A stretch of 64,000 bases of DNA from Raja brachyura (lineage: Eukaryota), in assembly GCA_963514005.1 (NCBI GenBank), contig OY740807.1:21018001-21082000 (forward strand), written 5' to 3'. The translations under genes were made by a program, and so were the position numbers. The number at the start of each line of letters is the position of its first letter. The stretch's first letter is position 1. This document shows positions 58,086 through 63,339 of this stretch, one piece after another. The notes beneath the pieces are model-generated. The model saw only the letters and a list, made by a program, of their open reading frames with translations, was not told the origin of the DNA and ran no database searches.

Positions 58086-61000
58086 AGCTCCACACTACCT
58101 ATCTGGTAATCTCAGTATTAATTTTAAAATAAACTATCCCATTCTACAGAATGGCTAATTTCTCTGGCCACTTTTTTTTAAATTCTAAGATTCGCACTTG
58201 CATTGAGATGGCCTGCCTGCCCACAGTCATTATCAAAAGTGAATCATACTTCTCCGCTTACATTCAATCCAATGCATTGCTTTTTCTCTGCCCCATTTTA
58301 AGTTTGCTTACATCATTGATAGGATAATCCCTCAAGGCAATTGTATTGATAAGAGGGCCAGAAGATCATGGACATTGTTCTTGGATCTGTGGACTGGATC
58401 AACCTCCTTATAAAGATGAGAATAATGCTGCATTTGGCACAATGTTGAAAACATGACTGAAATTGAGTACACATGGAAAAATGGGTGCTACAAATGCCAT
58501 ACTTTTATCAGCTGGTTTAACCTTGTTGATTTACTTGTGCCGTTGCACATTTGGCTCTGCTCATGTGTTTCCTTATTCGGTAGTCCAAAACCTGCGGAGG
58601 GATTCTTGAAGTTGGCGGCAAATTGAATCTGAATCTGAATCTGAAATCCAATAGTCAGCTGTGCTGCTCAACTCCACATGAAGCCCAGCAGCGGAGCAGA
58701 AACCTTCTGAAAGCTAATTGTTCCTGCAGCAAGTTAGACATGTCGCAGAGTTTGCACAGCCATTGGTTTCAATGGGAATTTCAGTGCTGCGCAGTGAAAA
58801 GGAGTGCAAAGTAAAAAAAAATCATTAAGCATTTCTGGATAACACTTTTTAATAAAGTTATTTGCTTTTTAAGCTGTTTATTCCAATTCTGATAGCTTCT
58901 AAATGATTTTGAAAGAATCATGTTTGAACCACCTTTTCTTGAGAGGTATCCAATAAATCCTTATGTTCGTCAAATTCTTGGCTTTTACACCTCAACGGAC
59001 GTTATGGAAGCAGTATAAAAGTTTGACAGCTGTTCGTAAATGGCTTGATGAAGCACTGATCAAATGCTGCATTGATTGCAGGGTGCTCGTATATAAAGTG
59101 TTTCGTCTGCACTTCAGTTAGGTCTACACTTTTTTAACTGCCCTTTATGACAGTTAACTCCTATTGAAAGATTTTTTTTTAAAGGTTAATATTTACTGTT
59201 ATTTTAAGTCATATAAAGTATATTTTGGATAGGAAATGTTTTTTACAAATTTAGCCCAATGTGGGATGCATCTGCTCCCTTACTATATGACTGAAATGTC
59301 AAAATAGATGACTGCAAATATTCATTAAAGTTTAAGTTATTAAGCGACGCACATTAATTGTTTGCGAGTTGCTTATGTTCGTCATATTATTGGCTTTTAC
59401 ACCTCAAATTGTAATTGGAGCCTGCAAACTATTACATCCAAACATTTCCTGTGCCCCATTGCGTCTTTGCTGAGATTTGTGACATTTTTATGGTTGAATA
59501 AATTAGTACTAAAGCAGCAGATGTAAGATGTCGTTTTTCTTTTACATAGCCTGTTATGATCTGCAATACACTGTGTGTAAAAGATAGTGGTGGAAGCAGA
59601 ATCTGTCATAGCTTTTGAAAGGAATTTGAATGCACAAGATTTGGAGATCTACAATGCACACGTAGGAACGTTAGATTTATTGCATACCTCTCAACATGAG
59701 TTGGTTCAAACATGATAGACTGAAAGCCTTTGTTGTATTGTTGTCAACATCACTGTGTAAACCAACTGAAAAATTAAAGAAAAACTTTTGGTGATGTAAA
59801 TCATAACTAAAATCTAAGCACTGGATGTACTCAAGGTTGGGCAGTACTGGTTTGAGAGAAACAGCTTGCGTTTCAGGTCAACATCCCTTCATCAGAACTA
59901 TCTATTGTAGCTCATGGAGGGAGAAGTTCATCTCTTAGTTGCCAGTGCTGAACACATACACAGCATTGCCCAGTGGTTGCTTTCCTTTATTGGCTTGTTT
60001 CTTTTCATTGACGTGCAATGGATCTGAATCTGCAGTTGAATTGGCAGCCAATACCCATGCACTTGTTTAGATCAAAACAAATGCCTCCGATTTGGACTCC
60101 TACTGGAACGGATGGTAGACACAAAATACTGGAGTAATTCAGCAGGGCAAGCAGCAACTCTGGAGAGATGCTGCCTGTCCTGCTGAGTTACTCCAGCATT
60201 TTGTGTCTATCTTCGATTTAAACCAGCAACTGCAGTTCTTTACTGCACTACAGGAATGGATGCTAGTTAAATATCTTTGGAACAGCTCTCCACTTATTCT
60301 GCCATTTGGTTAGACGAGTCGATCAGTATCCTTGTACTGCTCCCCAACAAGGCAATCAAAAATCACAAGAGACCACAGATGATGGAATCTTGAACAAAAC
60401 GCAGGTTGCTGGAGGAACTCGAGAGCAAGAGGTATTGAGTGCAATGAGATGCCTCATTGCAAGAGGCATCTGCAGAAGGAAATGGACAGATGTCATTTTG
60501 GATCACGACCCTTCTTCAGATTGATAGAGTGTATTCCATTTCCCTCCCTAGATGCTGCCTGACCCACTGGGTTTTTCAAGCAGTCTGTTTCGTGTAGCAA
60601 CATGTTATCTTATTTATTTGGCTGAAATGCAAATAAGTATAACCATTATAACCTGCAACCATTCCAAGACCAATACGTTCTCAGTAAGCTACAGTTACTG
60701 ATAAATTGTTTTTGTTTCACTATTATAATAGGTGCACTGTATGAAAATCTGAAAGTGCAGTGTAGGTTGCACTAGTTGTGCTGAACAATTATTTTGTGGC
60801 ATGCAATTTGGGTTTTCATCTGGTATTTTGAATCTGTTGATGGGTTCAGAATTGCAGTTTTGCAAATTTGTAGTTTAATTGGATCAACTGATGAGGATAA
60901 TTTGCTACGCTTTGACCTATGTTAGAAAGCTGCTTTTAGTCTGCATGAAATAGACAAGGTCAAGAATGTGTTTTGTTTTAACAATGATATAGAAATAGAC

Positions 61001-62180
61001 AGGTCAAGCACCCTTGACACTGTAAAATCAGCGCAAAGTATGTAGAGCTTAATCTGTATTTGTTGCTGGTTGTTTTACCTGTTCTTTACCTCCGAGAATT
61101 ATGCTTTCCTATACCTAGAGTAAGTGTGTGTGTATGTATATGTATAGATGTGACTTTTACCAAAACTGTGTTGATGTTTTACTATCCTCCATTTCCCATG
61201 CTTGCTTGTGAAGGTCAGTATCCGGAGGCTTATATTGATTTAATCTTTATGTAACAAAACCAAGACACGAAGTGGCAGGTTTCCATGAATCATCCCAATA
61301 TTTCATTTAATTCAAAACACACTCTATATGTACACCCTTTGGACTTGCATAGCATGATGCAGTGCACCAAACACATTTAAGAACCTTGCACAGGAGTCAA
61401 ATTAAAGTATTTATGTGAAGAGAGGTTTCAAACTGCAGTAAACTGCAGTCTCATCAATATCTTGTACTGCTATAATATAACCTCTCAACGCTTCTACACA
61501 AATTACATCGCATTGCTATGTTTTTACCCATTCATTCAGTCATAGCCACTCGATGTCTCTTTGCATTGTCTTTGCAGTTCACTGCGCCAACTAGCTTTGT
61601 GTCATTGGCATCATCTCAAAACATTACATTCTGTTCCTTCATCCAGAGGGCTTCATCCAGACATGGTGAAGGGCTTAATTCAACATGTCTAAAGAAGGGT
61701 CTCAACCCGAAACATCATCCGTTCCTTCTATCCAGAGATGCTACCTGGTCCACTGAGTTACTTCAGCATTTTGTGCCCATCTTATGATATCCCATGCAGT
61801 GTTCATTGAACTGGTGATTTTAGTTAATTTGTGACTTCAAAGAAATTTGCTGTATGTTAATTTATGTTTTGGTGTGACAGATCAATCTTAAAAGTAACTA
61901 AAACGTTATAGATCTCTGAAAAAATTTTGAGGGCTTTGCTATTTAACAATAAAGGAGTACTTATGCAAAGTAACATGTATGTGTAATTTTTAAGATCTGT
62001 TTGAACCATGATGAGATGAGAGTTCAAATTCGATTATGGTAGCTGAAGAATTGATATTCTTAATTTTATTAATTGAATTTAAGTTTAAAAATAAGCTTTC
62101 TCAGTAATGGTGCTGATGAAATTACCAGGACATCATAATAACTCAGTTTGTTCATTAGTTATCTCCAGTGAAGAAAATGT

Positions 62181-63157
62181 CCTCTCCTGGACTGCAACCT
62201 TGACGTGGAGGAGTGGCTTGTGTACTTCAGTGATCCTGAGAGCTATGCCGGATGGGATTTCATATCCCTGGCAGGTTCAACCAAATGGACAGGTCTTGGG
62301 GGACGAGGCAGACGAAGCAGTCCCTGGTCCTCCACTTTGGGGGTTGGGCATGGGGTTAACTACCCCACCCTGGAAAAAAGTGTGAGTTACAGAAACTTTG
62401 ACGAATGAAAAACAATTTACATACTTGGTTGATGAAGTTGCCCCAGGGATGGGGAACGTGACGCTCCCCAGTTAAACCCGCAAGGGAGCTGGGAAGCTCT
62501 CACATCTTCTGACGCCAAATAAATCCATCCTTGTGGGGACATGGAACATCCGAACCATGTCCCCACAATGATGGATTTATTTGGCGTCAGAAGTGCACCA
62601 TTTGGCTGGCAAGGCTGCTACAATTGCCATCAAAATGGTGCACCAAAATCTCTTAGCCCTGGGCTTGGCTGAAACAAGATGGACACAATCAGGGGAGATC
62701 AAATTGGTCAGCGGGGGCAATACATTGCTACTCCGGACAGAAAGAGGATGGAGCGAAGCATACAGAGGGAGTGGCCATCATGATGACGAACGACACATTA
62801 ACACCCGACTTGGGAGAATACTAAACATCTGGTGGAGAGACAAAGTAAGCAATGTGGACCTGTGGAAAAGAACATTTCAGGAGCACATTGACTTCCAAAT
62901 TTCAAGGAGAAAATGGAGTTGGATTGGACAGCATCAGGAAACCTGCCACAAACATCACCAGGCAAACTGGGTGATGGAACCTCCAAGGAAAAGAGGTCGC
63001 CCCAGGAACAGCTGGAGACGAGGTGTCCAGACAGAGATGTGTGAGAGTGGGCTCAACTGGGGAGATCTCGAAAGAACTGCCAACAACCGAGTGAGGTGGA
63101 GGACATTTGTCAATGGCCTATGCTCCCTAGAGGAGCAAATGGCTTGAGAAGAAGAAG
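62181..63157 (+). mobile_element. Internally deleted (bipartite) RTE retroelement with both ends retained; 14-bp TSD
   Basis: TSD agtgaagaaaatgt at 62167-62180 and 63158-63171. Endonuclease start LVGTWNIRTM..LGLAETRWTQSG is fused near 62790 to the RTE C-terminus RILNIWW..RRKWSWIG..RGRPRNSWRR..WRTFVNGLCS; (gaa)n tail; no RT domain. Confidence 0.92.
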
Positions 63158-63339
63158 AGTGAAGAAAATGTGCTGGTTTTACTTTCCAAAAATGTTGTGA
63201 TGGACTCTCAATTGTTCTCTGAAATAACAAACTGTTCAGTTGTGCTAATAATACTACATAAGGAGTTCCTCGTATTAACCCTGGACTTTCTGAGATCTCA
63301 TAGCATTAATTGGAACATGGACAAGGAAAGGAGAGGGGG

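Follow-up and report, generated by a model that had tools for sequence, protein, structure and literature searches.

The retrotransposon copy and its boundaries

The window, by which we mean the whole stretch of 64,000 nucleotides of contig OY740807.1 of Raja brachyura that was analysed, holds near its 3' end a copy of a non-LTR retrotransposon (Table 1). In tblastn the element corresponded to residues 1-135 and then to about 901-1031 of the 1036-aa APE+RT protein P0002, and by this comparison it is an internally deleted copy. A homology search with the APE piece of a sibling copy gave 75-79% identity to proteins with PF03372 and PF00078, while the short APE remnants themselves had no match in Pfam. 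The traits of the RTE clade that were seen are the single APE+RT frame of the homologues, the target-site duplication and the 3' microsatellite tail; the clade name is suggested on the basis of 5' sequence common to Repbase RTE and BovB entries.

Table 1. Positions in the window of the element, its 5' leader and its coding remnants
Feature	Positions	Strand	Details
Left target-site duplication	62167..62180	+	14 bp; repeated at 63158-63171
RTE-clade non-LTR retrotransposon copy	62181..63157	+	977 bp, internally deleted, (AAG)n tail
P1 5' strand	62181..62187	+	pairs with 62210-62216; predicted cleavage site 5' of C62181
P2 5' strand (helix A)	62189..62195	+	7/7 with 62317-62323
P3 and L3	62197..62209	+	P3 62197-62199/62207-62209; 7-nt L3 62200-62206 with the U20, C24 and G25 equivalents
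P1 3' strand	62210..62216	+	private A>T at 62214 gives a U.U mismatch
P1.1 3' side	62217..62218	+	C62217 with G62202; U62218 opposite U62201 or opening P4
Large P4 domain	62218..62311	+	about 95 nt
K-turn-like loop of P4			bulge 62229-62231; G62232.A62303; A62233.G62302
Hairpins of the P4 junction	62254-62268 and 62274-62282		
J4/2	62312..62316	+	cytosine at the catalytic position, C62313, then G-A-A
P2 3' strand (A')	62317..62323	+	7/7 with 62189-62195
Strand B'	62327..62343	+	possible partners: local hairpin 62329-62343, ribozyme core 62205-62212, element 3' end 63097-63104
Bulged hairpin with anticodon-like loop	62346..62370	+	7-nt loop 62356-62362
Stop and pseudoknot strand	62383..62391	+	in-frame stop 62383-62385, strand 62385-62388, next codon 62389-62391
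APE endonuclease N-terminus remnant	62386..62795	+	starts V-T-E-T; broken in the window copy; first in-frame ATG 62449; GTWNIRTM motif from 62536
Private inverted duplication	62561..62603	+	43 nt; makes long hairpin 62502-62594; skipped by other copies
3' end of RT reading frame, to its stop	62796..63147	+	
Right target-site duplication	63158..63171	+	repeat of 62167-62180

A DNA search of the 2.7-Gb genome to which the window belongs (G000) was carried out, in which 40 of 114 candidates were scored, at 88-93% identity, and 30 were fetched. These 30 copies (family 1) are the best-scoring among the 114 candidates and are therefore biased toward 5'-complete ones. Positions +1 to +8 are identical in 26-30 of the 30 copies, positions -1 to -6 are mixed and the upstream flanks are unrelated; contigs from public runs likewise diverge into mixed flanks at 62181. 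The first-pass annotation had placed the 5' boundary of the element at 62181, and the 14-bp target-site duplication together with this sharp break across 30 copies confirms it.

The copies of the family have many different internal deletion breakpoints. About two-thirds of the 5'-complete family-1 copies in G000 (L002-L030) are internally deleted, with breakpoints that cluster 450-590 nt from the 5' end and about 110-430 nt from the 3' end, which suggests a recurrent jump of the RT and not one short master. Since there are so many different deletions, and since the window copy carries 11 private changes against the family majority in its first 215 nt, the copy is decaying, and the proposal that its structure was kept despite the loss of RT is not supported. 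The 43-nt inverted duplication, which looks like a fold-back template switch, turns what is naturally a short hairpin into a 40-bp stem that is almost perfect (62502-62603), and it explains the miRNA-like Rfam matches below threshold, which were rejected for this reason. Short repeats at 61680-61790 and about 60130-60250 share the phrase 'gctgagttac..cagca' in the ORF listings and are probably SINE or LINE tail fragments.

A fold of HDV topology at the first base of the element

The first-pass annotation had described two long crossing helices, and in the window copy both of them are there and cross: GGACTGC/GCAGTCC, here helix A, pairs 7/7 (62189-62323), GTGGAGGA/TCCTCCAC, here helix B, pairs 8/8 (62205-62335) and the extension of B pairs 6/6. 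Six further nested or 3' stems pair fully where they were placed or expected, which makes nine of the ten listed stems in all; the tenth, CCTG/CAGG, pairs 4/4 but was scored at the first CCTG (62186), whereas the one that was probably meant lies at 62235. Crossing Watson-Crick helices of at least 7 bp occur in 135 of 1000 dinucleotide shuffles of 62181-62370, and the crossing of A and B by itself is weak evidence that does not go beyond chance. The z-score of single-sequence folding (-0.56) was uninformative. In an Rfam scan no ribozyme or IRES family matched at E up to 10 across 61500-63200, nor in seven related loci; the twister and hammerhead models, too, had no match in the window interval.

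The first-pass annotation had seen no canonical HDV core, and here the result is the opposite. Helix A is P2 of a fold with HDV topology and core, so that a different catalytic class need not be invoked. The fold opens with P1 at base 1 of the element and not, as was thought, 8 nt further in. What had been missed are P1, P3, L3, P1.1 and C62313, and P1 was overlooked in part because a private change breaks it in the window copy. Bases are numbered as in HDV, also beyond U20, G25 and C75. The first base of P1 coincides with the insertion boundary at 62181, and the order of the strands is that of HDV-like ribozymes in the descriptions given in PMC4908430 and PMC13635239, as far as these were available. 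The L3 loop reads U-U-R-N-C-G-U in the window, and among the 30 copies, which were found without a pattern, U20 is kept in 30 and G25 in 25; a role of G25 in a U.G pair at the metal site is described in the available part of PMC13635239. P1 pairs 7/7 in 22 of the 30 family-1 copies and 6/7 in the window copy, and 26 of the 30 have C at the catalytic position. On this sequence evidence we propose, with a probability of roughly 0.85, that 62181-62323 is a worn HDV-like nested double pseudoknot at the first base of the RTE, likely self-cleaving to free the element RNA from read-through host transcripts. The first-pass annotation was therefore right in that a conserved, pseudoknotted RNA marks where the RTE begins and that it is a candidate for self-processing.

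Conservation of the core in related loci

Of the fold, the search patterns prescribed P3, L3 and some of the P1 3' strand and nothing else, so that the P1 5' side was left free. Because these bases were fixed, the conservation of P3, L3 and that part of P1 in the loci found is not independent evidence. In G000 the pattern search gave three more families, with 126 matches against 5 in the control, of which 56 were counted beside the first 30 copies, and it also gave at least 118 metagenomic loci and one viral contig. Four of the 207 matches lay too close to a contig end, leaving 203 usable. P1 is 7/7 in 143 of the 203, while swapping of the P1 3' strands between sequence types gave 7/7 in a mean of 17 and a maximum of 29 loci (300 trials); an all-Watson-Crick P1 is present in 107 loci against a swap mean of 1. 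Where P1 is at least 6/7, it opens with C-G in 61 of 67 loci of the own genome and in 102 of 109 from metagenomes. P1.1 covaries between G-C and A-U; in 116 metagenomic loci it is G-C in 96, A-U in 13, G-U in 3 and mismatched in 4.

The loci with a long P4 form 12 sequence groups, namely the four own-genome families and eight metagenomic groups, six of them single loci. P1 is 7/7 in 10 of the 12 groups and 4/7 in the other two, and P1.1 is paired in all 12 (G-C 7, A-U 4, G-U 1). J4/2, which was in no search pattern, is C-N-A-A in 12/12. P3, the bases of which were fixed by the patterns, is paired in 35 of 36 cells and complete (3/3) in 11 groups; the sole exception is the A.A outer pair of the window family. 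P2 is 7/7 in its best register in 7 of the 12 groups with altered sequence and below 7/7 in the other 5, partly through mis-anchoring, and it covaries between families. Alone P2 is a weak test, for a partner of at least 6/7 was found in 86 of 86 G000 loci. Among the 113 loci in which P1 and P2 are both 7/7, J4/2 starts with C in 64 of the 76 from metagenomes and in 23 of the 37 from G000; 18 lack the A-A before P2 and 8 have another base for C. The ribozyme motif also lies upstream of APE-RT frames in L154, L146, L104 and L070.

When the outer P3 pair was set to G-C in the pattern, 87 viral loci were found, with P1 7/7 in 50, of which 49 open with C-G; many of the 87, which are phage loci, carry the exact L3 of the window and have no P4. 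The pattern search for this variant had no match in G000. In the Repbase fragments of the PMC5786205 supplement, which was seen in part and read by eye, crocodile and coelacanth RTEs have the same core at nt 20-24, several BovB entries have the same P4 end and J4/2, the elephant RTE1-N1_LA has the full fold with an altered P3 (A-U/G-C/U-A), and the horse SINE2-1_EC (head upstream) keeps P4 and the downstream knot described below, with L3 and P1 damaged.

The elements that carry this core are of several kinds. Families 2 and 3 (L034-L059, L069-L096) are RTE families with the same ribozyme and a different downstream leader, family 2 being about 430 bp long, and family 4 (L062-L068, L220-L249) is an ORF-less element of about 300 bp made of the ribozyme, the knot, a few codons and an RTE 3' end. 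Among L102-L219, groups of 41 and 29 loci are metagenomic repeats of about 300-350 bp headed by the same core; they have a shorter P4, still with the k-turn-like loop, and a pentanucleotide tail. L104 has two tandem ribozyme units (805-985), 158 nt apart, before its APE frame. The viral contigs L061 and L420-L506 hold minimal HDV-type RNAs that have the same L3 and open P1 with C-G, and phage contigs of about 140 kb account for many of them; a tRNA gene was near one of the 14 viral loci scanned, and L061 was undetected by Rfam.

The P4 domain

P4 consists of a short closing helix, an internal loop, a helix with a G.G mismatch and a three-way junction. The internal loop we take to be k-turn-like by its pattern of a 3-nt bulge followed by G.A and A.G between two helices. 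In an alignment of 11 real copies the 33 named pairs are 90% paired and 19 of the 33 show two-sided change, compared with 31-56% pairing for slid partners, and none of 500 shuffles reached this level of covariation; the structure was derived from the same groups that were scored, and the counts ignore relatedness. RNAalifold, unaided, recovers most of the P4 helices. Over the 12 groups the first pair of the k-turn-like loop is G.A in 9 and A.A in 3 and the second is A.G in 4 and A.U in 8, and both flanking helices covary. Among the stems listed by the first-pass annotation, GGGAT/ATCCC is kept, with 5/5 pairs in 10 of 12 groups; CTTGT/ACGAG, CTTCAG/TTGGGG and GAGCT/GGTTC are not kept across the groups, and TGCCGG/CTGGCA, with 2-6 of its 6 pairs, is a partial competitor of a better-covarying P4 helix.

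The size of P4 among the matches ranges from nothing to about 95 nt, so that P4 is peripheral. Since some relatives combine this core with a very small P4 or none, we infer that the large P4 would be a protein-binding module and not belong to the active site.

Helix B and the strand B'

The two crossing helices differ in their conservation: A, which is P2, covaries between families, but B shows no two-sided change over its 8 pairs. B reaches 7/8 in the window family; the two relatives with a common B' have 5/8 and 6/8, the other nine groups 0-4/8, and its eighth pair in the window is owed to a private change at 62335. Furthermore, B cannot coexist with the ribozyme because it occupies strands of L3, P3 and P1. 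That A-B-A'-B' is the functional pseudoknot is thus not supported. It might still be argued that A and B, both of which pair fully in the window copy, build a new catalytic or structural class, as first proposed; the fold with B lies 1-7 kcal/mol below a fold with P1 and P3 forced in 5 of 5 family-1 copies, with pseudoknots unscored, and Rfam gave no match. However, among the loci tested Rfam also fails to detect minimal HDV-type RNAs, and 13.5% of shuffles contain crossing helices. A helix that is unconserved, is completed by a private change and uses the strands of P3, L3 and P1 makes such a class highly improbable, and the covariation contradicts it.

Helix B could instead be an attenuator like that of L1Tc, an analogy drawn from the report that downstream sequence refolds the L1Tc ribozyme RNA (PMC3185411, seen in part). 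Because transcription reaches B' only when the whole ribozyme has been made, B' could refold the cut RNA. None of the three partners of B' has a compensatory change. With the 3' end of the element B' forms 8-9 bp in families 1 and 4, which in typical copies does not exceed chance (74, 46, 12, 14 and 21 of 200 shuffles) and in the window copy is above chance (1 of 200) owing to private changes. Family 2 has a different, perfect 10-bp pairing between leader and 3' end, above chance (1 of 200).

Proposed cleavage and the state of the window copy

In the proposed pathway, transcription that reads through from the host would cross the element, and the ribozyme would fold and cut co-transcriptionally 5' of C62181, with C62313 as the putative general acid and Mg2+ presumably held at the U.G pair of L3. 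The compact folded 5'-OH end would be stable and resist 5' exonucleases, as the available part of PMC11331408 leads one to expect. The RNA might then be translated without a cap, more speculatively by way of the downstream knot, and RT would copy it through to its first base. That the folded 5'-OH end is protected and fully copied by RT would explain why the copies have a common first base although their flanks are unrelated.

The 5' ends of the copies are sharp, and the window copy is a decayed product. Its P1 duplex has -7.1 kcal/mol against -11.5 in a typical copy, and the U.U mismatch in P1 and the broken P4 pairs indicate that it is probably a slower or dead ribozyme. Leftover read depth in two runs was consistent with a single-copy contig that carries the change at 62214. 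All five core features tested are intact in 14 of 30 family copies, as expected for old insertions. In family 1, A.A takes the place of the outer P3 pair in 30 of 30 copies, the pair that closes P2 on P3, present in most groups, is missing, and one unpaired A stands before P3. The fold could therefore be real in a family that no longer cleaves. An internal promoter firing at +1, or descent from a parent that still cleaved, would then determine the 5' end, and the pseudoknot would serve only as a nuclease-resistant, protein-binding cap. There are precedents for both halves of this in the sources, seen in part: the first 77 nt of L1Tc (Pr77) are promoter and ribozyme (PMC3185411), so that such a boundary could also come from a promoter inside the element, and a stable HDV-like fold improves the use of R2 templates, which was credited to 5' protection (PMC11331408). 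But the family majority keeps U20, G25, P1.1, C75 and the two adenines, the close relative L050 has an A-U outer P3 pair, and P3 is full in 11 of 12 groups, so that we regard a family-wide loss of cleavage as unlikely.

An anticodon-like knot downstream of the ribozyme

The 3' hairpin of the first-pass annotation is contained in a bulged hairpin with a 7-nt loop. AAC of the loop (62358-62360) pairs with the triplet GTT (62386-62388), and the pairing as a whole joins 62358-62361 to 62385-62388. The paired triplet is the opening codon of a frame that continues into the endonuclease motif; the codon just before it is, in family 1, an in-frame stop. L154, which is 36-46% identical to P0002, keeps this relation of triplet and frame with a different spacing, and by eye the stem of the knot covaries between family 1, family 4 and L154. 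When the pattern prescribed no bases for loop or partner, 44 of the 53 matches in G000 had the triplet paired, as did L154, compared with 3 of 84 chance matches in viral contigs. V-T-E-T occurs near the start of P0002, P0003 and P0008. The pattern of the knot gave 502 matches in G000 against 13 in the control, and these are mostly family 4 among the 100 matches listed. Patterns for further lineages found nothing in G000 beyond families 1 and 4 with mutated copies of these, and only chance matches in viral contigs (84 and 57), and protein-led scans for such lineages gave two distant loci in genome contigs and none in viral contigs.

By analogy with PKI of dicistroviruses, the knot may mimic a tRNA anticodon-codon pair and let the RTE protein begin at a non-AUG codon, a tentative reading that is additional to the ribozyme and not exclusive. 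The loop has the form Y-U-NNN-N-A, and its positions 3-6 pair with a strand that ends right before ACN GAA ACN; PKI of IAPV has the same layout of C-U and then five pairs (PMC4132737, seen in part). The two-sided changes among the three lineages with the chance control, the stop before the paired triplet with the frame entering the endonuclease motif, which L154 shares in its relation, and the recurrence of V-T-E-T in three homologous proteins all point the same way. Against this, the knot is found in three DNA lineages only, which are related to each other, and in 0 of 23 other ribozyme-bearing loci scanned, where three loose descriptor matches had no T-E-T. In-frame AUGs lie 21 and 17 codons downstream, and P0008 is annotated with Met before V-T-E-T. 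By eye, the BovB fragments of the PMC5786205 supplement, seen in part, have the paired triplet out of the ORF frame and an AUG four codons on. PKII and PKIII were not found, and the upstream domain folds as nested P4 helices with no IRES match in Rfam. The earlier suggestion of a translation-initiating RNA thus receives some support, from the pseudoknot at 62346-62391.

Family 4 and SINE2-1_EC, which are non-coding, have retained the knot, and this fits recognition by a protein equally well. P4 and the knot could be recognition sites for the RTE protein, or for a host protein of the L7Ae type, that act in packaging or in formation of the 5' junction and are not translation signals; from the sequences we judge this a reasonable possibility at somewhat less than even odds, again additional and not exclusive. 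Both structures persist in ORF-less elements, the family 4 of about 300 bp and the horse SINE2-1_EC (the latter by eye from the part of the PMC5786205 supplement that was seen), and the R2 protein binds a 5' pseudoknot according to the available part of PMC6765202. However, families with a short P4 spread without the large one, and the presence of P4 and the knot in SINEs may be mere inheritance.

If the analogy with PKI is followed, RTEs of the window lineage, and BovB in altered form, might carry a leader of two parts: an HDV-type ribozyme with a large P4 that contains a k-turn as a dock for protein or ribosome, and an anticodon-mimic knot that would start the single protein of the uncapped RNA at a non-AUG codon. 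Such a leader would be a counterpart, in cellular genomes, of PKI of the dicistrovirus IRES; we put it forward with reserve, as the less probable outcome. For translation of uncapped ribozyme-cut retrotransposon RNAs an IGR-type IRES is raised as a possibility only in the available part of PMC3894237, and the anticodon-like knot makes the translation of such RTE RNA directly testable.

Relation to known ribozymes and leaders

It is already known that HDV-like ribozymes occur at RTE 5' ends, that such RNAs can start with C1-G and that RTEs can be bipartite. RTE elements, together with R2, R4 and Baggins, are reported to carry HDV-like 5' ribozymes (PMC6765202 and PMC5786205, citing Ruminski et al. 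2011; both seen in part). In the portions of the full-text literature covered we found no description of this P4 domain, of a BovB ribozyme or of an RTE leader pseudoknot, and an earlier description is possible. What the present analysis gives is a testable 5'-end secondary structure, missed by Rfam, for a large animal RTE group to which BovB and RTE-derived portions of several SINEs apparently belong. As RTE UTRs serve as gene-writing templates and have been optimised empirically (PMC13708176, seen in part), knowing where ribozyme, P4 and pseudoknot lie is also of practical use.

With the ribozymes of R2, R4, RTE and Baggins, as the citing papers describe them in the parts seen, the window shares the exact position at the 5' end, the nested double pseudoknot and the proposed release from host co-transcripts with help in translation; in the window P1 opens with C-G and P4 is a covarying domain of about 95 nt with a k-turn-like loop and a three-way junction, a form that some of the reported RTE ribozymes may also have. 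The C1 start and a P1.1 of one pair plus U.U or C.U are known in fast ribozymes (PMC13635239, in part). HDV variants (Weinberg et al. 2015; PMC13635239, in part) likewise include a C1 start in a C. briggsae RNA, a P1.1 of one canonical pair with U.U or C.U and the catalytic C first in J4/2, and the phage RNAs found here, which have the exact L3 of the window, resemble the theta and minimal ribozymes of phages (PMC10879173, in part). In these variants and phage ribozymes, however, P4 is small or absent and the parts of the sources seen describe no tie to RTE; with a tRNA gene at one of 14 viral loci, identity of the phage RNAs with theta is not established. The Perere-3 twister variants of Schistosoma (PMC8501958, in part) also belong to the RTE clade and have a ribozyme at the 5' junction next to the target-site duplication, but they are of a different ribozyme class, and the window has no twister match.

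The downstream knot is like PKI of the dicistrovirus IGR IRES (PMC4132737, in part) in its bulged hairpin, its anticodon-like loop and a pseudoknot of 4-5 bp that ends right before the open frame. The window differs from it in having no PKII or PKIII, in the downstream in-frame AUG that is available and in the frame misfit of BovB, and its function is putative.

A further parallel is L1TcRz of the Trypanosoma cruzi L1Tc and NARTc elements, an active ribozyme that in the parts of PMC3185411 and PMC4035085 seen has a C1 start with G37, a P3 of 3 bp, a P1.1 of 1-2 bp, a downstream sequence that refolds and inhibits it and short bipartite derivatives, all of which have likenesses here. L1TcRz belongs to the Ingi clade, is 77 nt long with a small P4, is also a promoter and has been shown to be active, whereas the activity of the window RNA is predicted. 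Finally, the element as a whole resembles Bov-A, RTESINE and RTE-N (Kojima 2018, PMC5786205, in part), in which a 5' end is joined to a 3' end with the middle deleted; unlike these, the window family is a swarm of deletions with different breakpoints and not the progeny of one short master.
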